64,000 nucleotides of DNA from a virus (lineage: Duplodnaviria; Caudoviricetes): positions 54,403 to 118,402 of the IMG/VR virus record IMGVR_UViG_3300028797_000006; one strand, 5' to 3'. Position 1 is the first letter of the stretch, and each line of letters starts with the position of its first letter. Below, piece by piece: positions 37,019 to 64,000 of the stretch. Both the position numbers and the translations under genes were made by a program. The notes beneath the pieces were generated by a model. It was not told the origin of the DNA and did not search any database. It saw only the letters and a program-made list of their open reading frames with translations.

Positions 37019-37020
37019 TT

Positions 37021-37414: not shown

Positions 37415-37416
37415 AG

Positions 37417-38029: not shown

Positions 38030-38101
38030 TGGTCGCCGCACGTGGAGTCGAACCACGCTAAGACGCTTATGAAACGTCCGCGATCACCGGATCATACGGC
38101 G
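38030..38101 (-). tRNA. tRNA-Met(CAT) elongator (or Ile2), short D-arm
   Basis: GACGT-TT CAT AA-GCGTC; 1-72 paired. Confidence 0.75.
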
Positions 38102-38103
38102 GT

Positions 38104-38180
38104 TGGCTAGGGCGGGAGGACTCGAACCTCCACAAACACGGGTTCAAGGCCCGTTGACTCTACCATTCGTCCACGCCCCA
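38104..38180 (-). tRNA. tRNA-Gln(TTG)
   Basis: CT TTG-type loop in ACGGG..CCCGT stem. Confidence 0.85.
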
Positions 38181-38184
38181 ATGT

Positions 38185-38279
38185 TGGTACTCCCTGAGGG
38201 ACTCGAACCCCCAACCAGCCAATTATCTGTTGCTATACGGGGTATAAACCCGCCGCTCTACCGGTTGAGCTAAGGGAGT
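38185..38279 (-). tRNA. tRNA-Ile(TAT) with long variable region
   Basis: GCGGG-TT TAT AC-CCCGT plus ~24-nt variable region. Confidence 0.8.
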
Positions 38280-38283
38280 ATAA

Positions 38284-38364
38284 TGGAGACACTGGCAGGA
38301 TTTGCACCTGCGATGATTTACTGAGGTTGCAGCTCAGCCCCTTCGACTACTCGGGCACAGTGCC
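38284..38364 (-). tRNA. tRNA-Cys(GCA)
   Basis: CTGAG-CT GCA AC-CTCAG, U73. Confidence 0.88.
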
Positions 38365-38367
38365 AAT

Positions 38368-38402
38368 AAAAAACCGCTAGACATATTCCTATGCTAGCGG
38401 TT
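38368..38402 (-). terminator. attenuator terminator preceding tRNA operon 1
   Basis: AACCGCTAG-CATAGGAATATGT-CTAGCGG-TTTTTT; its TAGCATAGGAA can instead pair with TTCCTATGCTA in the leader ORF. Confidence 0.8.
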
Positions 38403-38436
38403 GTACCTGATTGTACACTGTTAGTGCCAGTGTTAA

Positions 38437-38526
38437 TTATTTGGTTTTGTTAGCATAGGAAAACTTACACTTCATAAAGCGTGAACTAAGTCTTTGTTTG
38501 GAACATATCTTTAATTCGTTGATCAT
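38437..38526 (-). CDS. leader peptide 1, MINELKICSKQRLSSRFMKCKFSYANKTK
   Basis: AAAGGAGA RBS; codons match operon-1 anticodons; last codons form the antiterminator. Confidence 0.8.
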   Translation of the reverse strand: MINELKICSKQRLSSRFMKCKFSYANKTK

Positions 38527-38995
38527 GTTGTGTTTCTCCTTTGCTAAACGATTATAAGGTTCATTTAACCAACAGACAGTAAGCTTGTAGGGTTCTCTTT
38601 CGAGACTTTGCAGTTGGCACCTCGGGCCTCGCACCGTCCACTGACATAATGCCAGATACCTTACCTATCTTAACCTTACATTATTATTATAGGATAATTT
38701 TTCGATCCTGTCAATAGAATTTTCATAAAAAAATTACCGAGTTATCGGTAATCTCCGGGAATAGATTTTGAGTAAGGCCCCTAAGGTCACTATTCAGTGT
38801 TAACTTTTATGCAGCCGTTAACGAACAACTAGTTATCGTACTAGCGAACTAGAATGGATTTGGGACCATTCATTTACCCAAGAACATATTTACTAGCTAT
38901 CGGTAAAGGCCACTTAGTCAACCCTATTCATTCTTACTCTTATGTAGGAACTCATCCTTTACTATTATGGGGTCTATTGTTAGGCTAGTAACGTA

Positions 38996-39598
38996 ACTGC
39001 CCTTTGATAATTATCTAATGCTGACCTTCGTCATACACGGCTTATTAACTGACATTATTCACACACGTTCACTAGAGTCTGAGGCAAAGGGAGCGACCCA
39101 ATGACTTCTCTAATGGCATAAAGCGATCAACGGGAACAGTTTACTTTGTTCCAACTTTCACCGAGCTTCAGAGCATATTGTATATTGATCGTAACTTTCA
39201 ACGTCGCGGTCAGATTTAACCTTATGTTAAAGCTTCTTCATTTGTCTTTCAGCTACTCGTACAGCCATATTCAGTTATAGGTTATTTCTAACCATCAAGA
39301 CACCGGTTTCCTTTGAGTGCCGGGATATTAAGTTTCTCAGGCTTAATTCCTTAGGCGAGATGCATTACTGCAGTTGCTACTTGTCACCGCTGAATTTAGG
39401 CTTTGCTTATGCGTAGTTAACACGATGCACAACCAACTACATCCTTCACTGCTTTCCCATAGTAGGTTTACCTATAAGTTTCCCGATAGGTTTCTTACTC
39501 ACAATACAGTATCCCATATTGCTTTCATTCTGTAGCTGGCTCCAGGCGGTCCGCAAGACCATCTTCACCTGGTTGCAAAGATAATTATCAAAGAACAA
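38996..39598 (-). ncRNA. large structured ncRNA, ROOL-like (~600 nt)
   Basis: Ends pair (CTTTGATAATTATCT/AGATAATTATCAAAG); own TTGACA-N17-TATAAT promoter; ORF-free and tRNA-adjacent; GGGTCGCTCCC..TCAGACT segment recalled from ROOL RNAs but not verified. Confidence 0.6.
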
Positions 39599-39941
39599 TT
39601 ACAACATTAAGAAGTTTATTTTTCCTTAATGGTATATGTATTATAGAATTTTTCTGACGAGATGTCAAGAAACTTTCCACTAATTTTTGAAGAAGTTTTT
39701 GGTTATAGCCCTTAGGGCAACCTTAAGGCGAACTTCTCGGAAACCTCCAGATCGTTCTAATTGGCAGTAGAACTTATTGGCTAAGACTGTTTGCTACTGT
39801 AGCCTTCCGCTTCACATTGTTTAAGCACTTGTCGCAGCCATACCGCATCTCGGAACTTTTTAGCAAATAGGTATACGCGGCCAATCTCAACCCTATTGGT
39901 AGGTCGGGGTTATAACTCCCACTTGAATAATTAAATATAAA

Positions 39942-40277
39942 TTATTTTCTCTTCTTAGTCAAGGACTTTTTGGCTTTTTCTTCAAGAATTCTCTTGAGGT
40001 TATCCTTGATATCAGCAAGGTAAACATCTTTTGCCGCACAAGTTGGAAGTAATTTATATTCATCCCATAAGTCAGAAACACAAATCTTAACACCACGTGC
40101 GTTGCAAGCAAGAGCAAATGACTCTTTATCGTGATATTTACTTAACAAACCACAAGCACCGACATCAATGCGGCCGACTTTGTCGAGACCGTGCCATAAA
40201 TGTCTTTTTGGACCGTGATGTTTGCGCAAGCGTATTTTAACTGGGGCCGCTGGCTTACCCCCTCTTCGAACTGCCAT
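39942..40277 (-). CDS. basic hypothetical protein
   Basis: Arg/Lys/His-rich N-terminus; own promoter. Confidence 0.7.
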   Translation of the reverse strand: MAVRRGGKPAAPVKIRLRKHHGPKRHLWHGLDKVGRIDVGACGLLSKYHDKESFALACNARGVKICVSDLWDEYKLLPTCAAKDVYLADIKDNLKRILEEKAKKSLTKKRK

Positions 40278-40341
40278 TGTAGTAGTTCTCCTTTCTTTAT
40301 ATAAATAATTATAGCATAACCTTTTGAGTTATGCCACAATT

Positions 40342-40635
40342 TTATTCTCTAATAATGCAACGATCATGGAATTCATCACTACCTACATAGTGAAGTTTTC
40401 CATCAAGAACATAGAAAACTCCTTCGCAACCGTCATATTCAACGATTTGATAATCAGTTGCTTCATCTGGAACCTCTACAACCTTAAGTGTTTCGGCGTA
40501 TCCACCGAACTCATTAATGCGACCGACAAAGCGTCCTGTTTCCACTAATTCAATAAAATCTGGACGGAAACGTGCTATTGCACTGGTTTCACTAATTTTT
40601 CCGTAACTTGTATTTATAACTACTTTCATGCGCAT
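40342..40635 (-). CDS. hypothetical phage protein
   Basis: KVVIN..LKVVEVPD..YQIVEYDGCE. Confidence 0.7.
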   Translation of the reverse strand: MRMKVVINTSYGKISETSAIARFRPDFIELVETGRFVGRINEFGGYAETLKVVEVPDEATDYQIVEYDGCEGVFYVLDGKLHYVGSDEFHDRCIIRE

Positions 40636-41018
40636 TTTCTCCGTTTTTCCGCCACTTCCCTTTAGAACTCCCCAGTATCATTTTTAATACTGAGATTGTC
40701 GAGTTCTTCCTCATAAAGTCTTTCAACTTCGTCCTCATATTCGTCACAGTTCTCGCAGTTAATGTGGCAATAGTAAGAATGTTCACAGTCCATGCACATC
40801 ATCTCATATACATAATCTTCAATGTTAATCATAAAAGTGCTCCTTTTTATTTTCATAGCCGTGCTCAATCCAGCCTCTTATATAATCTTCTCTATTGCTT
40901 TTATTTCTAAGAAGATAGAACCAAGCACTAAGTTTGCTGGTATAAGCCTTTTTAATAACAAAGCCGCCGCGGATTAAATAGCAGCCATAATAAACTTCTT
41001 GCATTTCTGGTTTTTCCA

Positions 41019-41669
41019 TTAATCCCACCAGCTTTCTAAATATTTAGACACGATGCCTAAAAACTTTCTTTTATACTTTTGTTCTAATTTATACATCTTT
41101 TTATGCCATTTCTTGACGATTTTGCGGCTAGATGGATACCATTTTCCGTCTGGTCTGAAACGGTATTCGCACTTCCAATTGCGGTCAAAAATCTTTTCAG
41201 AGTCGTCAAGGTCAATGACTTTAAAATTATCATCACTAATGTGTTGCCATTTATAATAATATTCAAGAGCTTTTGTGAGTGTTTCTTCACGAGTTGGCTC
41301 ATTTTTATAACGGATAGGATCTTCGTCTTTTTGTTCCATAGCGTGAACACCTTCACCGCCATGATAAAAATCCTTCATAAGATTTAAGTAAGTGACGAAC
41401 ATATCCATACCATAGCTCCATTCGCCTGGATGGCTTTCATCAACAATTTTATGAAGTTCATTTTTATAAGCGTCTATCATATCATAATAGCCGTCAGAAT
41501 AATCGCATTTTATTTCGTTGCCGAGAGAATTATATGCTTCGTTAGAAGAACAAGATGGGTCTTCATCTTCTTCATCATCGTGAAGCAGAAGATTCTCGCA
41601 GTCATCAAAAAAGAAGTCTTGTGCTAAATCTTCTTCTGCTGTATCAGGCATTAAATCCATTTTACACAT
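41019..41669 (-). CDS. hypothetical protein
   Basis: 216-aa ORF ending WWD. Confidence 0.7.
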   Translation of the reverse strand: MCKMDLMPDTAEEDLAQDFFFDDCENLLLHDDEEDEDPSCSSNEAYNSLGNEIKCDYSDGYYDMIDAYKNELHKIVDESHPGEWSYGMDMFVTYLNLMKDFYHGGEGVHAMEQKDEDPIRYKNEPTREETLTKALEYYYKWQHISDDNFKVIDLDDSEKIFDRNWKCEYRFRPDGKWYPSSRKIVKKWHKKMYKLEQKYKRKFLGIVSKYLESWWD

Positions 41670-41671
41670 AA

Positions 41672-42052
41672 CTATTTATCCCTTATACGTAAGAATTGAT
41701 CCCAGTTCCAAGGATACCAATCGGTTTCACCATAGGAACGGAGTGTATCCATACACCATTCAACAAATTCTATTGAGCGGCGTCTATTGAAAAATTTGTC
41801 TTCTCTTGGAAGATAAATCATTAGTTCATCACCGATACATTCGGTGCAAATCTGCTTTAATGTTTGTTTTGCGAAAAGTTTATTAGCTCTATACATTAAA
41901 GGTATAAGTCTACGAACTCTATCATAAGCAGTTGCTGGTTGAAGATGATTGTTGCGTCTGTAAGCATATCTACATTCAACGATTAAAAGGTCATACATAT
42001 CTTTTAATTCTATTCTAATTTTAGCATTTATATCCCATTCTAGTGTTTTCAT
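41672..42052 (-). CDS. hypothetical protein
   Basis: RBS before MKTLEW. Confidence 0.65.
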   Translation of the reverse strand: MKTLEWDINAKIRIELKDMYDLLIVECRYAYRRNNHLQPATAYDRVRRLIPLMYRANKLFAKQTLKQICTECIGDELMIYLPREDKFFNRRRSIEFVEWCMDTLRSYGETDWYPWNWDQFLRIRDK

Positions 42053-42063
42053 AATTGTTCTCC

Positions 42064-42456
42064 TTAGATAATGTAGATATCGAGGCAATCAATATAATCT
42101 TTACCAACGTATTCTATTTTTAATTCTCCGTTTAAGTCTTTGCTGAAGTTCATTGGTCTGAAACCACTTGCTTCTATGCGGAAAACTTTATAATTACCAA
42201 ATCTCTTGAGCAATACATTTGTTTCAGTATCAAGAGGTTTATAATGACGAGCATCATCGCAGAATGGATTATTATCCCAATAATCTTCATTTAAGCTAAG
42301 TATTTTATTAAGAGTGTTTCTGCGGCTTCTATCTCTAAAATTATAAGGACTATGAACCTTACGAAAAGACTCGAAGATTAAACAATCTCTATTTGGTTGA
42401 TAAATGCGATAATGTGTATGAGGTGCTAAATTTAGAATGAATTCTCGTAGGGTCAT
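42064..42456 (-). CDS. hypothetical protein
   Basis: ORF with promoter and RBS. Confidence 0.65.
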   Translation of the reverse strand: MTLREFILNLAPHTHYRIYQPNRDCLIFESFRKVHSPYNFRDRSRRNTLNKILSLNEDYWDNNPFCDDARHYKPLDTETNVLLKRFGNYKVFRIEASGFRPMNFSKDLNGELKIEYVGKDYIDCLDIYII

Positions 42457-42514
42457 ATTTTATATACTCCTTTTAATCTATATTAGTATACCATAACTTT
42501 TTAGTTTAGTCAAT

Positions 42515-42905
42515 AAAAAACCTCCCTTAAGGGAGGAAAAGAGCCCCTCTGACTAATACAGGAAGAGAGGCGCAGGCACAACCCTGCTAGCAGACTTACT
42601 GTCTGGAGTTTCCCGGCTTTCTCTTCTTTCTACCTTATGCATTGAGGTTAATTACCTATTACATAGACAAGTACGACTTGTAGCATATGCCTAATAGGCT
42701 GAAGGAGTCCACTGACTTCTTAGGACAGGCCTTTCACCTGCATGTCCCTCCTACTCGATATTATTTCAATCTTTCTGAGGATGCTTCTACGTGCAATTAC
42801 TTGCTGTCAACTTAAGTTACCTAAGAAACAACATTCAGTACTGGGTGGTGGAACATGCGCGCGGGATATCCCCGGGCCTAATAGGACAACTAAGTCCTAC
42901 CTCTT
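42515..42905 (-). ncRNA. putative ~380-nt ncRNA
   Basis: ORF-free; TTGACA..TATAAT promoter upstream; 5' hairpin; terminator CCTCCC/GGGAGG-T6. Confidence 0.55.
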
Positions 42906-42924
42906 TTGATATATAATTATATGA

Positions 42925-43263
42925 TTAATCTTCTGCTTTGTCAAGACTTTTCCTATAATCGTCTAAAAGTTCTTGGGCCTCTTCATCAGAGAAGACAAGA
43001 TGTCTTGAGTTGTCTGGTAAAGTTATCCAAGTACCAACTTCTTGTTCCATACCAATATATTGGAATTGTCCGCCCCATTCGTGATTATATGGGACAACAT
43101 CCCATTCAATAATGGTACAATAGCCGTCAGTACATATATGTATATCACAATAATGCTCGTCACTTTTATTATTATATTCAAAAAGATAATCTAAAAGTTT
43201 TTTATGTAATCCTTGCTCTACTTCTTCTGGAGTAAAAGCCATACTATTATATTCTGTTTTCAT
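42925..43263 (-). CDS. hypothetical protein
   Basis: ORF with RBS. Confidence 0.65.
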   Translation of the reverse strand: MKTEYNSMAFTPEEVEQGLHKKLLDYLFEYNNKSDEHYCDIHICTDGYCTIIEWDVVPYNHEWGGQFQYIGMEQEVGTWITLPDNSRHLVFSDEEAQELLDDYRKSLDKAED

Positions 43264-43274
43264 ATTTTAACTCC

Positions 43275-43574
43275 TTATTGCTTTTGTTTTTGTTTAATTA
43301 AATCATTAACATAATCAACGACTTCATTCCAATCTTGGATGGCTTTATTTTTAGCTTCATCATCTTTAACATTGATGTTATCATAGCCATCTGCTTTAAT
43401 AATTCCGCAGCCGCCACATTCTAACCAATATTCTGTGCAGCAATCATACTCCATATCACCCCATGGGTCGAAGCCTCTTGACTTTATGACAGGAGCTGCG
43501 CCGCAAATTGGGCATGGCTTTCCCACATAATCCTTGTGTTCTAGTCTTGTTTTTAATCTATCTATCGTACTCAT
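43275..43574 (-). CDS. Lar-like Zn-ribbon protein
   Basis: KPCPICG..C..CG..AIQDWN pattern. Confidence 0.6.
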   Translation of the reverse strand: MSTIDRLKTRLEHKDYVGKPCPICGAAPVIKSRGFDPWGDMEYDCCTEYWLECGGCGIIKADGYDNINVKDDEAKNKAIQDWNEVVDYVNDLIKQKQKQ

Positions 43575-43648
43575 AAAACTTATACCTTTCTAATATCTAT
43601 ATTAGTATACTAAAAAAGATGGACTATGTCCATCATATTATTGGTTAA

Positions 43649-43724
43649 TGGTGCGTCTTGAAGGGCTCGAACCTCCGACCTCTACTACGTCAAAGTGGCG
43701 CTCTCCCAACTGAGCTAAAGGCGC
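43649..43724 (-). tRNA. tRNA-Val(GAC)
   Basis: TT GAC GT loop. Confidence 0.88.
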
Positions 43725-43885
43725 ATGAGTGGAATTTTTGGCAGGAACTCCACGAACCGTCAACTATTTTAACCACGAAAGTTTTCACAAAGGATAGGTT
43801 TTAACGCGACCCAGTTTGAGTTGATGAGGCTCCACCTACAAACGGCTGTTAGGACATTACAGCTTTGGGAATCACCCGCCCTACT

Positions 43886-43961
43886 TGGTACTCCCTGACG
43901 GGCTTGAACCGCCGACCCACTGCGTGTAAAACAGTAGCTCTCCCAACTGAGCTAAAGGAGT
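43886..43961 (-). tRNA. tRNA-Val(TAC)
   Basis: ACTGT-TT TAC AC-GCAGT. Confidence 0.9.
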
Positions 43962-43968
43962 ATATATA

Positions 43969-44205
43969 TAATTTCTCTCTGAAGTCTCATTTTTTGTGCA
44001 GCCTGGGCTTCGTTGTTATCTGCACGTTCGTCGACGCCAGGTCTTTTTTATCGCGTCCCTCAATATCACGCCTTAGTCGGAAAACCCCGGCTCGCCTTTG
44101 ATATGGTCTTGGGAACATCCTTTGTTACAAGCAGTCTTCATCTGCAGCCCTTCTCCGTTCTACTACTGTGCACATAGTAAATCGGTAATACGTTGAGAGA
44201 AATTA
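43969..44205 (-). ncRNA. putative ~235-nt structured RNA in tRNA operon
   Basis: Ends pair AATTTCTCTC/GAGAGAAATT; GC-richer interior. Confidence 0.5.
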
Positions 44206-44213
44206 GAAATAAT

Positions 44214-44310
44214 TGGACAGGCTAACGGAGTTGAACCGATGGCCCCTCGAGCGAGCCTTTTATAATCAACCGTATACAATTGATTATAAAACTTACCGTA
44301 AGTTAACCTG
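44214..44310 (-). ncRNA. tRNA-like RNA with 12-bp extended anticodon stem
   Basis: Acceptor-like CAGGTTA/TAGCCTG, CCA end, T-loop TTCAACT, stem TTTTATAATCAA/TTGATTATAAAA. Confidence 0.6.
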
Positions 44311-44314
44311 ATAA

Positions 44315-44388
44315 TGGAGCCGTAAGAGGGAGTCGAACCCTCGACCTTTCCTTGGCAAGGAAATGTTTTACCGCTAAACTACTACGAC
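44315..44388 (-). tRNA. tRNA-Gly(GCC)
   Basis: TTTCC-TT GCC AA-GGAAA. Confidence 0.9.
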
Positions 44389-44389
44389 A

Positions 44390-44463
44390 TGGCACGGGAG
44401 CTACGATTTGAACGCAGATACACAGTTTTGGAGACTGCAGTCCTACCGTTGGACGACACCCGC
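44390..44463 (-). tRNA. tRNA-Trp(CCA)
   Basis: GCAGT-CT CCA AA-ACTGT. Confidence 0.88.
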
Positions 44464-44706
44464 ATATGATGGAGAGTGATTATTTTCGCAGCCCTCTCTC
44501 CCAGGATTTCTTGTGTCCGTTCTGCTAGCCGAGTTTCACGGCATCTTTTATAGACATGTGGACGTCACTTGAAGGCTAAGTCTTGTAGCCCAACGGTTGC
44601 TCTCGGTAATGGCCGTTCCCTGCACCGCCGCTTTTATGCGAGGATAGCGGTACCTCTTAACTATTTTGTTTTTATGTTAAACGGGCGTCACCCCATGCAA
44701 ACTATT

Positions 44707-44792
44707 TGGTGGGTAAAGAGAGACTTGAACTCTCACGACCAACCGGTCAGCGGATTTTAAGTCCGCTTTGTCTGCCATTCCAACACTTACCC
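44707..44792 (-). tRNA. tRNA-Leu(TAA)
   Basis: GCGGA-CT TAA AA-TCCGC. Confidence 0.9.
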
Positions 44793-44805
44793 AATGAATG
44801 GTTAT

Positions 44806-44882
44806 TGGTACCCCTCGAAGGATTCGAACCTTCACTAAATAGTTTTTGAAACTACTGCCTCTGCCAGTTGGGCTAGAAGGGC
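44806..44882 (-). tRNA. tRNA-Leu(CAA), short variable arm
   Basis: GTAGT-TT CAA AA-ACTAT. Confidence 0.82.
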
Positions 44883-44885
44883 ATA

Positions 44886-44962
44886 TGGTCCGAAGCAAAG
44901 GATTTGAACCTTTGATCCCCTGATCCCAAATCAGGTGCATTACCAAGCTCTGCTAGCTCCGG
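44886..44962 (-). tRNA. tRNA-Pro(TGG)
   Basis: CCTGA-TT TGG GA-TCAGG. Confidence 0.9.
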
Positions 44963-44967
44963 ATAAT

Positions 44968-45041
44968 TGGTGGATCGAAGGGGAATCGAACCCCTAGCCC
45001 CTGAGTGCAAATCAGGAAGTTTCCCGTTAGCCTACCGACCC
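44968..45041 (-). tRNA. tRNA-Ala(TGC)
   Basis: CCTGA-TT TGC AC-TCAGG; G3:U70. Confidence 0.88.
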
Positions 45042-45044
45042 ATA

Positions 45045-45620
45045 TGCGCGGTTGTCAGTGGTTTAGAGAGGTACCGTAACCGCAAATCAACCTCTATACC
45101 TACCTTGGCTTTCTCCGCACCCTGCTACTCGCAATAGCCAACCCCGAGTTGCGGCTCAAGTTTCTGGGCTCTCCACCCCGCGGGCACTGCCAAATTCGTT
45201 CAACACTTTCATCCTGTGGTAGTTGCCACCAACGGCTTTATCGGGTGGATAGCCGCAAACCTCGCGTCGAGCATCATATTTCTATGAAGGTTATCTGCAA
45301 CGCACTACCTCGTCGTAGCCCGCTCCTAGGGTTCATCAATGCTTCCTCAGTTTCGGGTCGTTCTGTCCCACGGTGACCACATGGTCTTTATCCTTTGTTG
45401 TGGGTTTTAAGTAATACTGACTTTTGCCACTGGATGGCAGGATTGGCCTGCGTTCCGAAGTCCTAAACCTCGGGTGCTAGATCGGCACTACGTCCAGATC
45501 ATCAGTATTTTTATTTAACATCAGCAGGGCGGTAACCGACGCGCGTCCCTTTCGTTAGCCAGCTTTCATCCGATGACCTTCTAGTCGGTAATGTCTCATC
45601 GGTATCTACCCTCTAACTTT
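45045..45620 (-). ncRNA. ~575-nt GC-rich noncoding tract (one or more structured RNAs) in tRNA operon
   Basis: No credible ORF; many hairpins, e.g. ATACTGA/TCAGTAT enclosing ~100 nt. Confidence 0.55.
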
Positions 45621-45642
45621 TTGTATTGATGTTATAAACTAA

Positions 45643-45719
45643 TGGTGCCCGTTGAAAGATTTGAACTTCCAACCCTTCGCTTACAAGGCGACTGCTCTAC
45701 CGTTAAGAGCTAAACGGGC
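45643..45719 (-). tRNA. tRNA-Thr(TGT)
   Basis: TCGC-CT TGT AA-GCGA. Confidence 0.88.
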
Positions 45720-45896
45720 ATATCGGATTTTCTCTTCCCCGTCGGGCGATGCAATTATTCCGGGCGATTTGTCCTGTCAACACGCCACCGATGACAGACT
45801 CTTTTGGCGTTCTCTGGAAAGAGTAATTTCGAGGGAGATTCACCTCCACGCAGTCTTAATTTACTATTGCTAATAAACTAACATTGCGTGAGAACT

Positions 45897-45978
45897 TAGT
45901 CGAGGGAATGGGATTCGAACCCATGGTCACTGATACTGTTTTAATCCGGAAGCTGCCTTACCACTTGGCTATCCCTCG
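45897..45978 (-). ncRNA. tRNA-like RNA or pseudo-tRNA without canonical anticodon arm
   Basis: Intact acceptor, D and T arms; anticodon region unpaired; ends CTA. Confidence 0.6.
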
Positions 45979-45980
45979 AT

Positions 45981-46055
45981 TGGTTGCCGGGGTGAGAGTC
46001 GAACTCACTACCCAAAGGTTATGAGCCTCAGATGCAACCGTTACACTTCCCGGCG
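45981..46055 (-). tRNA. tRNA-fMet-like (CAT)
   Basis: CT CAT AA loop; C1:A72 mismatch. Confidence 0.8.
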
Positions 46056-46062
46056 ATATTAT

Positions 46063-46136
46063 TGGAGCCGCACAACGGATTCGAACCGATGTCATCTGCT
46101 TGGAGGGCAGAGGTATTGCCACTATACGAGTGCGAC
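46063..46136 (-). tRNA. tRNA-Gly(TCC)
   Basis: TCTGC-CC TCC AA-GCAGA. Confidence 0.88.
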
Positions 46137-46141
46137 ATAAT

Positions 46142-46216
46142 TGGCGGAGCCAGAGGGAGTCGAACCCTCACCGTCCGCGTGACAGGCGGACATCATAACC
46201 CCTAGACCATGACTCC
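46142..46216 (-). tRNA. tRNA-Asp(GTC)
   Basis: TCCGC-CT GTC AC-GCGGA. Confidence 0.9.
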
Positions 46217-46218
46217 AT

Positions 46219-46295
46219 TGGTGGGAGGCCAGGGAATTGAACCCCGAACCTTTGCCTTATCAAGACACTGCTCTAACCTATTGAGCTAGCTTCCC
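46219..46295 (-). tRNA. tRNA-Ile(GAT)
   Basis: TT GAT AA loop. Confidence 0.88.
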
Positions 46296-46299
46296 ATAT

Positions 46300-46374
46300 T
46301 GGTGACCCCGGTCGGTTACGCTCCGGCCGTGTTAGGATGAAAGCCTAATGACTTCACTAGTTGTCTACGGGGCC
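46300..46374 (-). tRNA. tRNA-Glu(TTC)
   Basis: TTAGG-CT TTC AT-CCTAA. Confidence 0.85.
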
Positions 46375-46449
46375 AATTAGTTTTCTTCTTTCTTTTTACA
46401 TATATATTATACGGTAAGCTTTTGAGTTTGTCCATATAATTTTTCTTTT

Positions 46450-46525
46450 TGGTGTGAGGTGCGGGAGTTGAACCCGCATAGCTGGTTTCACAGACCAGTG
46501 AACTAACCATTGTTCTAACCTCACC
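46450..46525 (-). tRNA. tRNA-His(GTG)
   Basis: CTGGT-CT GTG AA-ACCAG. Confidence 0.88.
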
Positions 46526-46532
46526 ATAGCAT

Positions 46533-46609
46533 TGGCGGCCCGTTAGGGATTCGAACCCCAAACCCTCTCCTTAACAGGGAGCTGCTCTGACCGTTGGAGC
46601 TACCGAGCC
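46533..46609 (-). tRNA. tRNA-Asn(GTT)
   Basis: CTCC-CT GTT AA-GGAG. Confidence 0.9.
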
Positions 46610-50041: not shown

Positions 50042-50527
50042 CTATTCAATGTCACGGACAAATCCGTAGACACCGACTTCTGACTTAGAAACAGATGGGA
50101 CTTCAACCATATCTCCTTTTGAGAGATTGCCTTTCTTAACAAGACCATTGATTGAACCTGAACTCATTTTGTCTCTGCCCATAGCTTTTGCTAAATCAGC
50201 AAGAGTGAATGGTGATTCGATTGAGCTGACTACTTCAAGGATAGCCTTTTCGCCATCAGTGTAGTTGAATGGTTTTCCTTCTGCATTTGAGAGGGCTTCT
50301 GCTGTAACGAAGTTATAGCTGGAAACTTCTCTTGTTGATGGTCTTTCGATTTCTCTTGTACCAATCTTTGCGATTAAACCTTTCTTGATAGCGGAAGTAA
50401 GGTGACCTGGTTTGAATTCTCCGCCGTTAGCGTTTAATTCAGCAAGAGTTAAACCTTCTGTTCCTTTGAGTGCTGCTACGAGAGCACGGTCGTTGTCTGT
50501 ATAGACGATTTCTTTTGCTTTAGACAT
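50042..50527 (-). CDS. tandem winged-HTH protein (phage paralogue family)
   Basis: Two repeats YTD..AL..TLAEL..G..T.LxKKG. Confidence 0.7.
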   Translation of the reverse strand: MSKAKEIVYTDNDRALVAALKGTEGLTLAELNANGGEFKPGHLTSAIKKGLIAKIGTREIERPSTREVSSYNFVTAEALSNAEGKPFNYTDGEKAILEVVSSIESPFTLADLAKAMGRDKMSSGSINGLVKKGNLSKGDMVEVPSVSKSEVGVYGFVRDIE

Positions 50528-56987: not shown

Positions 56988-57836
56988 TTACATTGGTAGT
57001 TTATCTCCGAACTGGAGCTTGAGGTCCTGACAGGCTTTTACAAGGATTTGTCTGACGCGCTCTCTGGTAAGGGTTGGAGTAAGTAGCCCGCCGATTTCCT
57101 CAAGAGTGTGCTCCTCGAAATACATTTGCGGATCACCTGGTTCTCCAAGTCCAAATCTAAGTTTGAAGATTTTCTTGGTGCGGTCATCGAGACTGCCGAT
57201 AATCTTCATAGCGAGTTCGTGTTGAGCGTTTCTTTCCACATACTCGGTTGGTGTTTCGGTATGTGTGTCCTCACATAAGTCTTCAAGGGTGTTGTCCTCT
57301 TCATCGTTAATAGGTGTTGAGAGGCTGACTGTGTTTTGCTTCCAGCTCATCAAGTCATTATAGTCCTTGATATCCATACCAAGTTTCTTAGCGACTTCTT
57401 CGGAGCTTGGTTCTCTGCAGAGGTCAGCTGTGAGTTCTTCACGAGCTTTTCTTTCTTGATTAAACTTTTGAACGATATGAGCAGGGATACGGATAGGTCT
57501 GCTTTTATCAATTATGGATTTTGTGATAGCTTGTTTAATCCAAGGAACTGCGCAGGTTGAGAATCTGTAGCCAAGTGTGTAGTCATACTTTTCTACTGCG
57601 GTAATGAGTCCAGTAGTACCTTCAGCGATTAAGTCTTCTAAGCTCATATTGTTATATGAATTTTTGAAAGGCTTAGCTATTGATACAACGAGTCTAAGGT
57701 TGTGCTTAATCATTAACTGACGAGCATCTTCATCGTTCTCATCTTTGATGCGGCGACCAAGCTCGAGTTCCTCTTTTGCTGTAAGTAATCTATAACTTCC
57801 AATTTCTTTAAGATAAATTGATAGTGAATTGTCCAT
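56988..57836 (-). CDS. RpoD-like sigma-70 family RNA polymerase sigma factor
   Basis: YLKEIG..LLT, NLRLVVSIAK, DLIAEG..GL, YRFST, RPIRIPAH, TLEEIG..TRERVRQI. Confidence 0.95.
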   Translation of the reverse strand: MDNSLSIYLKEIGSYRLLTAKEELELGRRIKDENDEDARQLMIKHNLRLVVSIAKPFKNSYNNMSLEDLIAEGTTGLITAVEKYDYTLGYRFSTCAVPWIKQAITKSIIDKSRPIRIPAHIVQKFNQERKAREELTADLCREPSSEEVAKKLGMDIKDYNDLMSWKQNTVSLSTPINDEEDNTLEDLCEDTHTETPTEYVERNAQHELAMKIIGSLDDRTKKIFKLRFGLGEPGDPQMYFEEHTLEEIGGLLTPTLTRERVRQILVKACQDLKLQFGDKLPM

Positions 57837-57929
57837 AATAATAATCTCCTTCTTAACTTATATATATAATTATACTACATAACTCCCAAGTATTCAAGAA
57901 GTTTTTTAGCTAGTTGGAAAAATTATCCT

Positions 57930-58202
57930 CTACCAAACATCTTCAGAGTAGAGGCAGGTTCCATTAAAGTCATCACTGATTATTTGGTTTGCCTGCTTGG
58001 CGATGACCGCGGCCTCATAGCGGCTTACGAACCTATCACGGTTAGTGACAAATCCTTCTACTGCGGTCACCTTATCGTATTTGATGCCGTCTAAATACAT
58101 GCGGCGTAATGCGTCACAATGGCGTTTTCCAGTGTAAATACACCAGGCGTCCATATCGTCAAGACGGTGGAACTTAATTGCTGAACAAATGACTTTCTCC
58201 AT
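57930..58202 (-). CDS. conserved-type phage hypothetical protein
   Basis: ICSAI..GKRH..GFVT..RFVSR.EA..LYSEDVW. Confidence 0.7.
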   Translation of the reverse strand: MEKVICSAIKFHRLDDMDAWCIYTGKRHCDALRRMYLDGIKYDKVTAVEGFVTNRDRFVSRYEAAVIAKQANQIISDDFNGTCLYSEDVW

Positions 58203-58203
58203 A

Positions 58204-58356
58204 TTAGTCCTCCTGATTACGGTGTTTACGCTTGCGGGTATATTTAGTGCGGTCGCGGAAAATATTCATACGGTTTCGTTTTTGTATGTTGAAATGAAAT
58301 TCATTACGAACCTTGGCCGGATCGACTTTAATATGGATTGTTTGCTTGTCCGCCAT
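58204..58356 (-). CDS. 50-aa basic protein, ArfA-like C-terminal motif
   Basis: MADKQTIHIK..IFRDRTKYTRKRKHR; GGAGG RBS and promoter. Confidence 0.55.
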   Translation of the reverse strand: MADKQTIHIKVDPAKVRNEFHFNIQKRNRMNIFRDRTKYTRKRKHRNQED

Positions 58357-58584
58357 AATATTTTCCTCCTTTTATTTTATATAAATATATTACACCCAGC
58401 TTCTGGGTTTGTCAATAGTTTTTTAGATTACTCCTGCTATTAGGACGTCTAAAGGGAAGATGCGGTTCAACCGGACTTATGTCGAATAAATCGACGAAAG
58501 TCGCATAAAATAATTTTAGTTAAAATTATATTTACAAAGTGCCTGCGATGTGGTATAATACCAGACGGAATAATTTTTATAAAC

Positions 58585-60200
58585 AAAAAGCACTCCATTT
58601 GGAGTGCTACGCGATCTAATGCTCATTTCTCATACCCGAGAGCTAGGGTAATTATGCGCTACCTCCCGGCAAGGAGGTTGCCCGTTATTGCCGTAACAGG
58701 ACTTCTACTATACGATAGTAGCCAACGACTGGCTGTAACGTTTGCCACCGGTGCCGCTTTCTTAGGGTTTCTTGTCGTAACCCTGCTCCGGTCTCACTAG
58801 CTGAATCCAGGGCGGTCAACTCCCCAGCGTCTTACTCAACCATCAGGTGCCTCCAGGAGGTCGACTCCTGGATTTTACGAGTCTGCTCGAAGCGCAGTTT
58901 AATGTGGTACACCCCACTGACCGATGAGGTTTTTTTAACGAGTGTTTCCCTACTCACTCGGTTGTCTCCTCTTGAGACATAGTCAAGTCGTGTATCGTTA
59001 CTACCCGGCGGCTTTACAGTGTGCCACACACTTCTGGTTTCACCGCAACCACCAGCAAGGAGTACTACGCCCGAGTCCACAGGTGTCGTCAGCACATCGT
59101 CGACCCTAGACGATTTTGTCGTCACAGGTCGTTGCTACACGGTTAGTTTTCTAGGCACTAACACTCGCCATCGGAGTTATCCTATTCTCAGCCATCGGCT
59201 CCTCAACTTGCTTTAGACAAATTGTCTGGTAAAGCGTAGCGTCCCCGGTCCTGCCGGCCCCAGCTCGCATCACAGTGGGGAAGAGTTGCAGATTACCCGT
59301 CTGCCTCTCGCTTCGGGGAGTTTAAGCCCGTGCTCGGCGAACTTCGTTCTCAGGTACGTTGCCCCGGTCTTGTGACTGCCGGTCATTGGGTTCCAGCCCA
59401 CTGCTGTTAATTAGTTGTTTTCTACAATGATGAGAGTGTAGTCTCTGGCCGACATATTCCCTCGACCCGTTGGTATGCTTTGATAATAATCGGGCGTTTA
59501 GCTCCTTAAACCCTTTGCCGGATAGATGCCGGCACCAGGACGTCCCGTTTTTATGGAGGTTGTACCCCTCGCAGCCGTCCCGACCGCAGGTCCATAGACC
59601 CCATGTGGTACTGCTTTCGTACGGCACAATGCCCGGTATCGTACCACTGAATGGATAACGTTTCCAAGCCCAGACACTCGACACGGTCTGGCGCGGCAGC
59701 CTTGCTTGCTCCATCACTGCTTAGGAGACTAACATACTATACCCCATCAGTTAGCCTAAGGGTTGCAGGCCATCAGCCTGCTGGGTACCTTGTACGGATT
59801 ACCAAACGTCCGCCAGCAGATCGATTCCCGTTTCGACGGCTTTCGCTTTCTCACCTGGTTACTGCTGGATGGGAGTTATGAGACCTCGGTGGGAGTTGCA
59901 CCCAATAGATGCTCTGTATCTACCAGACTCGTACATTTTTCGAGTCCACCGCGACCCTGCTGAGGGAGGCCATATCGTTGGAAGGAGTGGCCCGTGACGT
60001 GGGCCTTACGGCTATCTTCTTTGTTTTTTAGAGTGGAGTATACGCCTAGCAGGGAGCTGTTCCACTGGATTTTATTTGTTGGATTATTTCACTAATCTAA
60101 GGATGTGAGTAGTTTACAGACGTGCTCAGGTTGTCGCTTTCGCGTGTCCCAGTATGACGGTCTGGTTCCGTTGGCCCCGCATTTGGGCTAGAGTTTTTAA
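58585..60200 (-). ncRNA. giant (~1.6 kb) GC-rich noncoding transcript candidate
   Basis: TTGACT-N17-TATAAT at ~60228-60256; terminator AGCACTCCA/TGGAGTGCT-TTTT; dense hairpins; no ORF with RBS or phage-like codon use. Confidence 0.65.
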
Positions 60201-60262
60201 GACTTTTATCTTTGTCCTTATATAATAATTATACTCTTGTTTTCCCGTTAAGTCAAGGAGAA

Positions 60263-60526
60263 TTAGTCATTGCTGACTAATTCATAGACCTTGGCGGATT
60301 TCTTGACGGAGCCGACTTTAACGCCGTTGTAGATTACATCACAAGCGTATTCGACTTCCTCATCAGCCTTGACGATACCTTTCTTGATTAAGGTATTGAC
60401 TGAACCAGACTTGAAGTTAAAACCTTTGAAGTAGTTTAATTCAAATAAGGTTGCCTTTCCACCGTTGTCCTTTAATGCCTTACAGAAGGCAGTTTGGGTT
60501 TCATTCATTGACCATTGTTTTTCCAT
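60263..60526 (-). CDS. small wHTH-family paralogue
   Basis: W..NETQ..LK..ATL.EL..FKSGSVNTLIKKG. Confidence 0.7.
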   Translation of the reverse strand: MEKQWSMNETQTAFCKALKDNGGKATLFELNYFKGFNFKSGSVNTLIKKGIVKADEEVEYACDVIYNGVKVGSVKKSAKVYELVSND

Positions 60527-60837
60527 TTTTAATTTTTCCTTTCTTCTTTTTTGATAATATAATTATACCATATCTTTTTGACCTGGTCAATAAGTTTTTC
60601 AACTTAGTTCCAAATCTTTTTGATTAAGTAATAACTTATTATCTTTCTTTTCTTATACTATAATTATACTATAGCTTTTTGACTTGGTCAACATAATTTG
60701 CAGTTTCTCCTGCTGCTTTTGCACTAGTGGACCTTATGTGCAAAAAATGCACAGAAGTAGCAAGACGACCCACGATCGGATCGGCCTAAAAAATAAGTTC
60801 CAATTTATTATAACATATCTTTTTGACTTAGTCAATA

Positions 60838-61630
60838 TGAAAGCGCTTACATCCGTCTGCTTTCCGTCTGGTATTTGTAAGCGCTTACATTAGCACGCGA
60901 AAAAAGTTGCTCGATCGAGCAACTTGGTTATTCCGTCTGCCGTAGGGCTATCGGTTATTCACCGATAGCGTAGGTAGCGACTTCGACATAGACAGTCTTA
61001 GCGACTTTCTTGGTGCCGACTTTCTTGATAAGTCCAGCAGCGAGCATAGCGTTGGTTGTGCCGGTTTTGACTTCGACACCTGCGGCGTTGCTGATTTCTG
61101 CGAGGGTCATTTCTCCGTCTGCTTCCTTAAGGACAGCAAGGACTTTCTCACGAATTGGGTTCATTTTGATTTTGATTTCTTTAGACATAATTTCTTTTCT
61201 CCTTCTTTATATATATATTATATCATTTTTTCGGGTTGAGGTCAAGTAGTTTTTAACTAACTTTTTATTTAATTTTTAACTCCTTTCCCTTACCTTACAT
61301 ATATAATTATACGCCTAAACTTTCACTATTACAAGACCCAAATGAAAAAGTTTCGATCAATTCTAACTTTTTATTTGTCAAGTTGAAACCGCTTACATCC
61401 TGCTGCTTGTAAGCGCTTACATTCCGTCTGGTGACCCCTTCGGGGCCCCTTCCCCGAAGCACATTTTGGGCCGGAAGTCAAGTAGAAAGCGCTTACATTT
61501 TATATCAAAATATCATTTTAATTTTGATATAATTTATTTGTCAAGATGAAAACGTTTACATTTTTATTTCGCAAACCCAAAAATTTTTTAGAAACGCGAA
61601 ATAAGATTTGTCAAGATGAAAGCGCTTTCA
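60838..61630. promoter_or_regulatory. cluster of 7 cre/LacI-type palindromes TGWAAGCGCTTACA
   Basis: At 60838, 60876, 61384, 61408, 61484, 61547, 61617. Confidence 0.75.
60955..61188 (-). CDS. small wHTH-family paralogue
   Basis: VLAVLKEADGEMTLAEIS..TGTTNAMLAAGLI. Confidence 0.75.
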   Translation of the reverse strand: MSKEIKIKMNPIREKVLAVLKEADGEMTLAEISNAAGVEVKTGTTNAMLAAGLIKKVGTKKVAKTVYVEVATYAIGE

Positions 61631-61729
61631 TGCTGCTTTAGTGAAAAAATACTTGACAAACCCCGTTCCGTCTGCAAGCAGACGGACTTTCCGTCTGCGA
61701 AAAAGAGCAGACTTCCGTCTGCCCGTTTC

Positions 61730-62344
61730 TTAGGCACTGGCCAGAGCCAATGCCTTCAACAATATCGCCAATTCTATTTTGCTATCTTCAAGGGCTGTGT
61801 GTTCTTCGGTGTAATCCGTCTGCCCAGTGAGATATCTAAATACCGTTTCGGCTTTCGCTTGTGGTCTTGGTTTCTTGTGCTTGGTCATAAACCCATTCCG
61901 TCTGCAGAATTCCTTATACTCTTTTGTAGAGGTGATATGTGGGTCGGTTAATCCTTTCCAAATATCTTTAATTCCGTCTGCGGTAGGATTACTCTTAATC
62001 CCAAGTTTTTCGCAAGTCTTGGCGATAGCACGAGTATCAAAGCGAGAGTTATAAGCGTAAATTCCGTCTACCTTATATTTATTCATATCTCTCTTTAACA
62101 TACGCAACGCATACGCCCACTTAATTTTCTTACAATATCCGTCTGCTAATCTCTTGTGATAGATAGGCAACTTGTCGGCATAGTAAGCAGTTTTCATTTT
62201 GCGTTCATCATCAAAGATTTCACTAGTGATGTAATCACGGGTTTTAATAATTCCGTCTGCGTCATCATAGATGAGATAACCTAAATCGTAAACTGATGGG
62301 TCAAATACTCCAAGGGTTTCGGTATCAAGTACTAATAATCGCAT
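61730..62344 (-). CDS. DEDDh 3'-5' exonuclease
   Basis: LVLDTET, AYNSRFD, EEHTALED. Confidence 0.85.
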   Translation of the reverse strand: MRLLVLDTETLGVFDPSVYDLGYLIYDDADGIIKTRDYITSEIFDDERKMKTAYYADKLPIYHKRLADGYCKKIKWAYALRMLKRDMNKYKVDGIYAYNSRFDTRAIAKTCEKLGIKSNPTADGIKDIWKGLTDPHITSTKEYKEFCRRNGFMTKHKKPRPQAKAETVFRYLTGQTDYTEEHTALEDSKIELAILLKALALASA

Positions 62345-63240
62345 TTTTCCTTCCTTCCTTTGATACATATATTATAACATAATCAACTACTGATTACAAG
62401 AGGCAGACTTTAAGTTCCGTCTGCCAGGGAACAGCAGTTTATTTCCGTCTGCCAATATCGGAGAGGGCTTGGTTTATACAGGATTAACCATAGGTCGCAA
62501 TCACCCACGAACTGACCGTTCTATTCTATTTCCTTTTCTGTTTTTGAGGGACAGCGGTGTGTTGAATTAACCTTTCCCTTTTGATGATATAATTATATCA
62601 TATCTAAGTATTAAATACAATACCTATTTAAGAATTCCGTCTGTGCCGGTGATTACGCGTTTCACTCACTCATTACTCTGCCGTTTCCGTCTGCCCGACT
62701 AGTTCTTGGGCTACATAGATACCGATTTTGCGACCCACATCTTAGGTCTTATCCGTATTTTTCCGTCTGCTACGCAATTCGATACTTTACATTGTGGTTA
62801 AACGGAACTCTTAAATAAGTGGTAGACTTTTTCATTCCGTCTACCAGGGAATGATAGTTCAGATTACAAACCTTCTTTTTGTTTGGAAGAAAGTCGTTTA
62901 ACTAACAACTCGCATATAGAAACCAAATATTTCCGTCAGTGGAGCATAACCGCTATCCTAGGTCAGGTTATGCTTATACTCCCCAGATTATCCGTCTGGC
63001 GGTCGGAGGTCTTCTTATTCTACAAATTCCTAAACTCATCTGGTTTCTTTACAAAGCCAGCAAAGTGTAGCCCGTTTTCACTCACGTGGAACAATGATTA
63101 CGATAATCCCGTCTGCCGTTGTGGCTCGCAGCGAACCGTCTGGGTGTTCCCATTAGACAAGGTAGATGAAGGTAAGAGAGAAGAACTCCGTCTGCCCTGT
63201 CTAATGGGGGAACGGGTTGCCCCGTTCCGTCTGCCCTTAG

Positions 63241-63495
63241 TTATTTTAAGCGATAGGTTTTTGCTGGGACTTTTCTTTCGCCAACTTTTGTGCCACGATA
63301 GAATTGTTCGTAAACGATTTCTCCGTCTGCACTTTCAACCAATTCTCTCATATGAGCATTATTGATTGTGCCTGTTGCGAACTTAATACCCTTATCAATC
63401 TCAATGTCTTTGAGAGTTGCTCCGTCTGGGTAGTCCTTTAAGACCTCTAAGAACTTTGCTTGATTTTCGTTTGGTGTCCAAGATTTTTCTGCCAT
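63241..63495 (-). CDS. small wHTH-family paralogue
   Basis: WTPNENQ..LEVLK..ATL.DI..FATGTIN. Confidence 0.7.
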   Translation of the reverse strand: MAEKSWTPNENQAKFLEVLKDYPDGATLKDIEIDKGIKFATGTINNAHMRELVESADGEIVYEQFYRGTKVGERKVPAKTYRLK

Positions 63496-63693
63496 AAATT
63501 TTTCTCCTTCCTTATCTTGTTATAGATATTATAGCATAACTTGATTTGATTTTCAAGTGGTTTTTATCAGTTTCCGTCTGCCGTTCTCTCTTGTCGGTGT
63601 GAGAGTTTTTAGTTATCACCTTTTCTTTACATATATATTATACCATTTTTGAAGATGGCTGTAAAGCGTTTCTTTTGACTTTCCGTCTGGTCG

Positions 63694-63906
63694 CTACCTT
63701 ATGATTTGATACATATAGCAACGACCGACATCATACGCTTTTCCGTCTGGGTCATCAAGAACTCTAATTAACATATGTTCTTTTCCGTCTCGCCCAGTGT
63801 ATTTAATATGCTCACTTGCTTGACTGATAATCCATTCACGGCATTCCGTCTCAGTTCCTTCAAATAAGACTGGACTATCTTTCTTTTGGTAATATATAAC
63901 TTTCAT
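63694..63906 (-). CDS. hypothetical protein
   Basis: MKVIYYQK after GAGG RBS. Confidence 0.55.
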   Translation of the reverse strand: MKVIYYQKKDSPVLFEGTETECREWIISQASEHIKYTGRDGKEHMLIRVLDDPDGKAYDVGRCYMYQIIR

Positions 63907-64000
63907 TCCGTCTGACCTCTCTTTCTTTGAGATACTAATTATCTCTTCTTTACACATATAATTATATCATATGTGTATAGAAGAAACAAGTAGTTTTACT

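Follow-up and report, generated by a model that had tools for sequence, protein, structure and literature searches.

The closest described analogue of the element analyzed here is the stoperator system of Cluster A mycobacteriophages (L5 gp71 type), in which the L5-type repressor recognizes more than 20 asymmetric 13-bp sites, located at promoter and intergenic 'stoperator' positions, with an orientation that tracks transcription and is needed for function (PMC9283540). A second point of reference is phage phi105 and its 14-bp operator GACGGAAATACAAG, the direct repeats of which were confirmed in NC_004167, one of them inside the ORF4 coding sequence (28360). In addition, phage T5 provides the example of two-step injection, with a requirement for A1/A2 (10.1101/866236). 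The subject of the present analysis is a 10-12-bp word, GGCAGACGGAAA, found in ~43 same-strand copies within a 4.4-kb early-gene module of an uncultured 118-kb rumen phage (Duplodnaviria; Caudoviricetes). The window, that is, the whole stretch of 64,000 nucleotides under study, corresponds to the last 64 kb (positions 54,403 to 118,402) of the IMG/VR record IMGVR_UViG_3300028797_000006, a single virus contig of 118,402 bp, hereafter C1. The copies constitute a real, conserved, and strongly selected array of cis-elements; judged from the sequence, they on balance probably form a co-oriented operator lattice, each copy being an asymmetric site bound by a site-specific regulator of early-module transcription.

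Extent, Copy Number, and Strand Polarity of the Array

The word is read as TCCGTCTG on the plus strand and as CAGACGGA on the sense (minus) strand, the latter being the coding-strand reading because every gene under the array is encoded on the minus strand. Exact TCCGTCTG occurs 32 times in the window, compared with 0.66 expected from shuffled sequences (maximum among 100 shuffles, 5), and 28 of these 32 copies fall within 60852-63914, with 27 on the plus strand and one on the minus strand (61679). The remaining four are located at 41145, 48569, and 50936 (plus) and at 58562 (minus). The original prediction had described about 35 copies in this interval, roughly one per 90 bp; the count holds when one-mismatch variants (TCCGTCTA/C, CCCGTCTG, ACCGTCTG, and similar) are included, whereas the exact copies number 28, with a mean of one per 109 bp. 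The rarity of the word elsewhere, also noted there, is borne out by a total of only three sense and one antisense copies in the other 114 kb of the genome.

The interval 60852-63914 does contain the array, but it cuts the feature short. The two contig ends are identical over 127 bp (window 63874-64000 corresponds to C1:1-127; IMG/VR class 'direct terminal repeats'), so that the end of the window is an assembly junction and not a physical terminus, and the genome map is circular. The array crosses this junction as far as C1:1402, with 16 further copies past the end of the window, the part inside the window (60852..64000, minus strand) comprising 27 sense copies. On the circular sequence, 43 sense and one antisense copies are thus found in 4,440 bp, where 0.03-0.07 would be expected. 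The observation is thus stronger than first noted, with a strand bias of 27:1 in 60852-63914 and 43:1 over the junction (binomial P = 5e-12), and k-mer counts along the genome place CAGACGGA as the commonest 8-mer of the entire AT-rich 118-kb sequence, with a density in the array 550 times that of the rest of the genome. Together with its neighbor at 61667-61674, the lone reversed copy inside the array (61679..61686, plus strand) makes up an inverted repeat of 9 bp. The positions of the copies display no clear helical phasing of 10, 10.5, or 11 bp, the only periodicity being a codon (3-nt) bias.

Two Fixed Registers Relative to Promoters

The first register places the word upstream of early promoters. 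Ten copies of this phage start 23-24 nt upstream of the -35 of a good promoter, five of them in the window (63689, 63580, 62643, 62423, and 60859) and five past the junction. When the motif-to-promoter distances up to 80 nt are pooled across six phages (~70 in all), 49 equal exactly 23 or 24 nt. The promoters linked in this way are sigma-A-type early promoters, with the word at about -59 to -50 and an A-rich 14-nt spacer between the word and the -35. The sequence of this spacer is otherwise unconserved while its length is fixed; therefore, selection acts on the spacing as such, an argument that the word stands in a stereospecific relation to RNA polymerase on double-stranded DNA. The word accordingly holds a fixed helical register upstream of the -35, the arrangement that characterizes upstream activator or UP-type elements.

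The five motif-linked promoters in the window, all on the minus strand, comprise (i) an early promoter cassette at 63637..63689, with the motif at 63682-63689, 24 nt before the -35 of TTTACA-N17-TATAAT (63665-63637); (ii) the promoter of a gene encoding an 84-amino acid winged helix-turn-helix (wHTH) protein, wHTH84, at 63528..63580 (motif 63573-63580, TTGAAA-N17-TATAAT 63556-63528); (iii) a promoter before a short stretch free of open reading frames (ORFs), at 62592..62643 (motif 62636-62643, TTGTAT 62620-62615, N17, TATAAT 62597-62592); (iv) the promoter of an exonuclease gene at 62371..62423 (motif 62416-62423, TTGTAA-N17-TATAAT 62399-62371); and (v) the last promoter of the array, at 60807..60859 (motif 60852-60859, TTGACT-N17-TATAAT 60835-60807), the 16-nt motif-to-promoter spacer of which contains a cre-like palindrome. 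In units driven by motif-linked promoters, the word first recurs downstream at +27 to +111 relative to the predicted start, never nearer to it.

The downstream edge of the array, where the last of these promoters lies, is also the place where cre-like sites concentrate. All six genome matches to the cre consensus TGWAANCGNTNWCA occur within ~800 bp (60838-61630), including TGTAAGCGCTTACA at 60876 and 61408, and several are located directly upstream of the TTGACA hexamers of early promoters. This cluster suggests, from the sequence, that the host belongs to the Bacillota and that CcpA or a different regulator of the LacI type exerts control here.

The second register concerns promoters of the opposite direction. 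Five antisense consensus promoters, in four phages, carry a co-oriented copy that starts 0-3 nt after the -10. The example in this phage (58531..58569, plus strand) consists of TTTACA-N17-TGgTATAAT at 58531-58559 followed by a copy at 58562-58569, 3 nt after the -10, an operator-like position at the start of transcription. The relative L002 displays the first register in reverse, with a plus-strand consensus promoter and a reversed copy 24 nt upstream of its -35. More generally, each of the five relatives has between one and seven copies in reverse close to where the array ends downstream, mostly just past a bidirectional terminator; those of this phage are located at 61679, inside the array, and at 58562. 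Since the reversed copies are co-oriented with promoters of the opposite strand, the polarity of the word follows local transcription and not a DNA end. The directional DNA-level signal proposed in the original prediction is thus genuine, and its polarity is tied to transcription and promoter geometry. The further suggestion that it marks a first-entering or terminal region is poorly supported in view of the fixed promoter registers, the reversed copies that follow opposite promoters, and the nature of the window end as an assembly cut.

Most copies stand apart from these registers, in the genes and spacers between the promoter sites, spaced ~100 bp apart: ~85% are self-contained, with no promoter link, and about half are inside ORFs. 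Cryptic promoters behind the non-linked copies were not found, 271 of the 320 copies in six phages having no promoter-like sequence downstream.

Overprinting on Coding Sequence

The leftward early operon has the array at its head, starting 3.4 kb away from the terminase gene, and the genes under the array are short and mostly equipped with their own TTGxxx-N17-TATAAT promoter. The word is present in all three reading frames and in ORF-free stretches. Twenty-two of the 43 copies are located inside seven ORFs, and 19 of these 22 are in the frame that encodes x-Asp-Gly, in agreement with the recurrent ADG, PDG, and SDG tripeptides that had been ascribed to the motif. As a result, the DG dipeptide reaches 3.0 per 100 amino acids in the array genes, 23 of 24 occurrences being encoded by GAC-GGA, compared with 0.37 per 100 amino acids and 5 of 68 elsewhere in the genome, an 8-fold enrichment. 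Among the NT5C orthologues, some word positions are common and others are lineage-specific; this phage has the word as ADG at one alignment column where, in two other phages, it is translated as ETE. As the codon usage, the enrichment, and this ADG/ETE column indicate, selection on the copies acts at the nucleotide (DNA) level and not on the peptide.

The gene content of the module, all on the minus strand, includes (i) an 87-amino acid ORF of no known family at 63694..63957, with two motif copies (SDG and PDG) and a promoter at about 63961-63989, the linked motif of which lies past the end of the window (C1:132-139); (ii) a DEDD-type exonuclease-like protein of 212 amino acids (61730..62368), with five motif copies in three frames (ADG three times, CRRN, and GQTD); and (iii) beyond the junction, an NT5C-type 5'-deoxyribonucleotidase (C1:811-1272). 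Several orphan ORFs and small winged-helix proteins are also located within the module. In its gene content, the module recalls the pre-early region of T5, which encodes A1/A2 and a deoxyribonucleotidase. After the exonuclease gene, a motif copy takes part in a terminator-like hairpin (61705..61724, minus strand), formed by GCAGAC-GGAA-GTCTGC and followed by a T-run.

A stretch of the array without ORFs, 62637-63240 (minus strand), displays patches conserved in L135 and L133. A high-depth RNA-library contig covers 62637-63111, with adapter sequence marking a fragment end at 63111, and the stretch may be a second non-coding RNA.

The Element and Its Conservation in Related Phages

The alignment of the copies defines a full element of ~12 bp, (G)G[C>T>G]AGACGGAA(A), devoid of dyad symmetry. 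The extended logo is common to the 49 promoter-linked copies and to the 271 others of the six phages, the former being nearer to the consensus, and the latter carry no information beyond ~12 positions and no further flanking signal.

At least eight related phage contigs from the rumen or gut carry the element, for which six loci give a count of 320 sense copies, and the word is present in the same early module of L002, L006/G001, L133, L135, and L136/L137. The enrichment and polarity put forward for this phage therefore extend to its relatives. In the terminase large subunit (TerL) relatives L002 and L006, the latter corresponding to the complete 115.7-kb record G001, the array occupies the same place in the same orientation; in G001, TCCGTCTG is found in 28 sense copies within 4.2 kb, with two elsewhere. 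The loci found via the winged-helix family (L133, L135, and L136/L137) contain 25-67 sense versus 1-5 antisense copies of AGACGGAA, and AGACGGA occurs 32-77 times in the loci of the relatives. Orthologous proteins of the module are 25-83% identical, yet the word is invariant in all relatives. The TerL relatives that lack the word (G002 and G004-G006) are fragments in which the wHTH genes are likewise missing, as the early region probably is.

A composite-pattern scan of bacterial assemblies returned, among the matches listed, arrays on three short phage-like contigs of metagenome-assembled genomes (L143, L203, and L245) and no bacterial chromosome with an array, the other matches being chance single ones. 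These three contigs, counted as arrays with their gene content unchecked, are read as mis-binned phage. A pair-of-motifs scan of viral contigs yielded mostly coding tandem repeats (collagen-like and similar) and one G001 fragment, and blastn of the array against 50,697 phage records gave no match. The nearest cultured phages, large Bacillus/Geobacillus siphoviruses, have a TerL at most 35% identical.

The early regions of L135 and L136 contain a second enriched 8-mer, GTAGGTTA, with 21 versus 9 reverse-complement copies in L135 and 17 versus 4 in L136. Separately, the Neisseria-type DNA uptake sequence, which shares CCGTCTG with the motif, was considered as an identity for the word and ruled out, the genome being that of a 35% GC Firmicute-type phage and the array being local.

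Winged-Helix Proteins as Candidate Readers

Paralogues of 77-91 amino acids are encoded in each of the five loci examined, with three or four per locus. In this phage, the family, encoded on the minus strand, comprises (i) wHTH84 (63241..63495, 84 amino acids), inside the array, with two motif copies, a candidate binder; (ii) a 77-amino acid paralogue (60955..61188) with one motif copy, a weak HTH_47/HTH_IclR match, and its own consensus promoter (61245-61217) without motif; (iii) an 87-amino acid paralogue (60263..60526) just beyond the array, with a consensus promoter at 60590-60562, again without motif, also a candidate binder; and (iv) a tandem protein of 161 amino acids (50042..50527), outside the array, formed by two domains of the same family, a further candidate with a homologue of this two-domain form in G001.

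The family founded on the 87-amino acid member contains 466 proteins, all metagenomic and without a Pfam domain, and its nearest named protein-atlas clusters, at the level of a lead, are winged-helix families. The AlphaFold model of this member (pLDDT 85) displays an H-beta-H-H arrangement with a long beta wing. Foldseek matches are weak (best E = 7.5e-3), the top ranks being mostly winged-helix DNA binders, including Stf76, F93, the ROK repressor, MarR/PadR proteins, and RTP. In 119 family members, the recognition helix, FKxGSxNTL, ranks with the most strongly conserved segments. An asymmetric site of 10-12 bp would suit a monomeric winged helix, with the helix placed on AGACGG and the wing in the A-tract.

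A Probable Regulator of the Early Module

Most likely, the copies are regulator sites and not a DNA-end, Chi, or packaging signal, because they occupy fixed promoter positions and are written into genes. The element would be an asymmetric double-stranded DNA site for a regulator of an early 'host-takeover' module, with all copies read by a single protein; the simplest candidate is a monomeric winged-helix protein, drawn from the small wHTH paralogues. At -55, the bound protein would touch RNA polymerase and either activate it or hold it, whereas at the starts of the antisense promoters it would occlude them. The intragenic copies may be polar roadblocks, provide cooperative anchoring, or act as a sink for the protein. 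All copies together would allow the phage to switch the whole module as a unit, using the host core polymerase and its own sigma factor. The 'binding lattice for a phage protein' of the original prediction, with the wHTH paralogues as candidates, is therefore the part of it that we infer and favor.

Several points weigh against this regulator. A protein acting at promoters needs ~10 sites and not 43-77, so that the role of the ~85% non-promoter copies is a matter of inference. The motif-linked promoters have a perfect -10, often with a TG extension, and may need no activator. Six of the nine listed RNA-library contig 3' ends in the array fall inside motif copies, and not ~15 nt upstream as expected of a simple roadblock. 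A reader encoded by the host would likewise be compatible with a word that stays exactly the same in diverged phages. The wHTH assignment relies on the weak fold matches described above and on co-occurrence, and the winged-helix proteins might instead bind the cre-like palindromes located by their own promoters.

Alternative Explanations

The first alternative, unlikely though the most plausible of those considered, is an RNA-level tag, in which CAGACGGAA in the early transcripts would be read by an RNA-binding protein or by a sequence-specific endoribonuclease, for timed inactivation or protection. T4 RegB, which cuts GGAG in early mRNAs, offers the likeness. Every copy is indeed on the transcribed sense strand, the reversed ones being at the 5' end of antisense units; the word is found in all three frames as well as in ORF-free stretches, is nearly absent from the other 114 kb with the remaining genes, and, in nearly every unit, first appears at +27 to +111 relative to the predicted start. 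In contrast, there is no RNA-level rationale for the 49 promoters in which the word keeps its 23/24-nt register to the -35, upstream of the start, and searches of the module revealed neither an RNase nor an RNA-binding domain.

The available libraries bear on this point. Runs with the sequence (n = 24) are bovine gut metagenomes and metatranscriptomes; the data are assembled contigs, and the RNA-library contigs, which span most of the region, are no proof of transcription and do not display transcript ends, gaps in cover being disregarded. As a weak hint in favor of the RNA tag, six of the nine listed RNA-library lower ends fall inside exact copies (60934, 61719, 62416, 62637, 63231, and 63233, the last two from two studies), versus one of 16 DNA-contig ends. 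Contig ends cannot show RNA ends, however, and five of the six abut a hairpin or terminator on its 5' side, a structure that by itself breaks cDNA assemblies; moreover, the high-depth RNA-library contig 62637-63111 crosses three internal exact copies uncut.

Somewhat less credible is a track read by the transcribing polymerase itself, namely a polar ops-like or Q-like loading signal every ~100 bp. Each unit would then present one copy at -55 and a first transcribed copy at +27 to +111, and the module would be insulated at its borders by the reversed copies. The special properties thereby conferred on transcription of this first-expressed module could be processive antitermination, resistance to host silencing, or T7-like transcription-driven internalization of the entering DNA. 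We know of no described precedent for a coding region with an Asp-Gly content shaped 8-fold by a co-transcriptional signal.

A promoter cassette is doubtful. It would be either a mobile early promoter/terminator cassette for gene shuffling, comparable to the PeSLs, for which precedent exists (PMC2839356, PMC4122927), or, with AGACGG as the -35 of a phage-sigma promoter class, an upstream-shifted second promoter class in which TTGNNN, 17 bp downstream of AGACGG, is the -10. The 49 cassettes of the form GGNAGACGGAAA - A-rich 14 nt - TTGNNN - N17 - TATAAT flank small, fast-evolving ORFs, and several copies are fused to hairpins or terminators. The distance from AGACGG to TTGNNN is exactly 17 bp, and the phage encodes a sigma-70-family factor (56988-57836). 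Neither version leads one to expect that 271 of 320 copies would have no downstream promoter-like sequence or that about half would be in ORFs. In addition, a phage-sigma -35 should recur in the rest of the genome, which has only four copies, and copies directly after an antisense -10 do not fit such a role; a -35 function is conceivable for the linked copies and leaves the remaining ones unexplained.

The least probable alternative, and a very improbable one, is a signal referenced to a DNA end or translocase, such as a Chi-like site acting against host AddAB/RecBCD on first-entering DNA or an injection or packaging signal (KOPS/SRS-like, T5-stop-like): it is in keeping with (i) the strong strand polarity and high local density, as in known polar signals, (ii) the location of the array near the terminase gene at the head of the early operon, (iii) the nuclease and 5'-deoxyribonucleotidase of the module, and (iv) the orientation, since, were the physical end in C1:2,500-4,300, a nuclease entering there would meet TCCGTCTG, on the 3'-ending strand, in the Chi sense, but it leaves unexplained the fixed promoter registers and a word that flips with promoter direction. 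The contigs of two near-full-length relatives break at different places and the contig is circular, so no terminal or first-entering position is shown and no end is located. The composite cassette, among the matches listed, is on the three short phage-like contigs and on no bacterial chromosome, and the T5 injection stop lies in untranslated DNA with DnaA boxes (10.1101/866236), whereas half of the present copies are coding.

Other Features of the Genome

Elsewhere, the phage genome encodes 31 tRNA genes, a ROOL RNA, and its own sigma-70-family factor, a protein of 282 amino acids (56988-57836, minus strand) located downstream of the early module, with orthologues containing regions 1.2-4 in L133, L134, and L136. 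Neither a PF00589 integrase nor a PF01381 (XRE-type) HTH protein was found in the genome, homology to L5 gp71 itself not being part of the search; with no integrase and no XRE-type repressor, the phage is apparently virulent and the array apparently not an immunity system.

The ROOL RNA (222 bits) is located at 39002-39596 (minus strand), amid 30 minus-strand tRNA genes (35878-46609). A further tRNA at 5845-5941 (minus strand), with the anticodon UCA, which reads UGA, is called tRNA-SeC by ARAGORN and may be a suppressor or recoding tRNA. Between the consensus promoter at 60256-60228 and the terminator at 58608-58589, a stretch of ~1.6 kb (58606-60220, minus strand; 49% GC) contains no ORF; RNA-library contigs from two studies are far deeper here than over the neighboring genes, relatives are 70-93% identical in patches, and the stretch may represent an undescribed family of large structured phage RNAs. 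A search of 57800-64000 against Rfam gave no match even at E <= 1. Finally, the divergent region between the early (minus) and terminase (plus) genes, C1:2500-4300, has few convincing ORFs, comprising a fragment ORF at C1:2321-2488 and a small Zn-ribbon ORF at C1:3756-3944, and is a possible place for pac or cos.

Significance

If the regulator described above is the correct explanation, large, apparently virulent rumen phages would switch their takeover module via one small protein family and 40-80 co-oriented sites. This would amount to a second, independent invention of the stoperator logic of temperate actinophages, at a density that rewrites protein sequences, and to a natural case for overlapping regulatory and coding information. 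Were the binder confirmed, the 12-bp word and the 87-amino acid protein could provide compact, orientation-dependent promoter/operator parts for Firmicutes. The arrays of AGACGGAA also constitute a simple marker for the phage lineage and its early region in metagenomes.

Comparison with Known Systems

Short strand-polarised words, or boxes for host proteins, are found where a directional DNA process is controlled, as in Chi, KOPS/SRS, and the T5 injection stop (10.1101/866236), and the array resembles them in this respect; unlike it, they are referenced to replication, a DNA end, or a translocase, and have no fixed promoter register. The Chi-like, packaging, and injection readings of the original prediction, which leave this register unexplained, are thus poorly supported.

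In T4-like phages, PeSLs recur as composite early-promoter cassettes between the small, variable early ORFs of a plastic region (PMC2839356, PMC4122927). The 49 motif-linked promoters of the six phages, some with hairpins, bear a likeness to them that covers only ~15% of the copies. PeSLs are intergenic and proposed to act via homologous recombination, whereas the present 12-bp word is fixed upstream of promoters, mostly promoter-less, and often intragenic.

The operators of phi105 are likewise asymmetric direct repeats, and the 8-mer GACGGAAA is common to the phi105 site and to the present core. In contrast to the array, phi105 has three or four sites at one divergent promoter region, and the 3' half of its site (TACAAG) is unconserved here, only GACGGAAA being common. 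In tblastn against the genome, the phi105 ORF1 repressor gave no match at E <= 10 and ORF4 only matches at E >= 0.86, and hmmsearch with the wHTH profile against the ORF1 and ORF4 proteins returned nothing significant. With no homologue of the phi105 repressor and an unconserved 3' half, the shared 8-mer is a resemblance and no evidence of homology.

The likeness to L5 is closer and comprises (i) many short asymmetric sites, 43 here, at and away from promoters; (ii) a site orientation that correlates with transcription, with 43 sense and one antisense copies here; and (iii) a monomeric HTH reader, known for L5 and proposed here. The differences lie in distribution, position, and lifestyle. The L5 sites are genome-wide and mostly in short intergenic gaps, whereas 43-77 sites are packed here into 4-6 kb, about one per 100 bp; in this phage, they are confined to 4.4 kb of a 118-kb genome, with 22 of 43 inside ORFs. 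The L5 promoter operator overlaps the -35, whereas the promoter site is here at -59 to -50. In addition, the phage is apparently virulent, and the candidate binder belongs to an unrelated family of small winged-helix proteins. Compared with both L5 and phi105, the array is thus distinguished by a ~20-fold higher density, confinement to one module, coding overprint, and the -55 register: it is stoperator-like in logic, and new in its density and in its overprinting on coding sequence.

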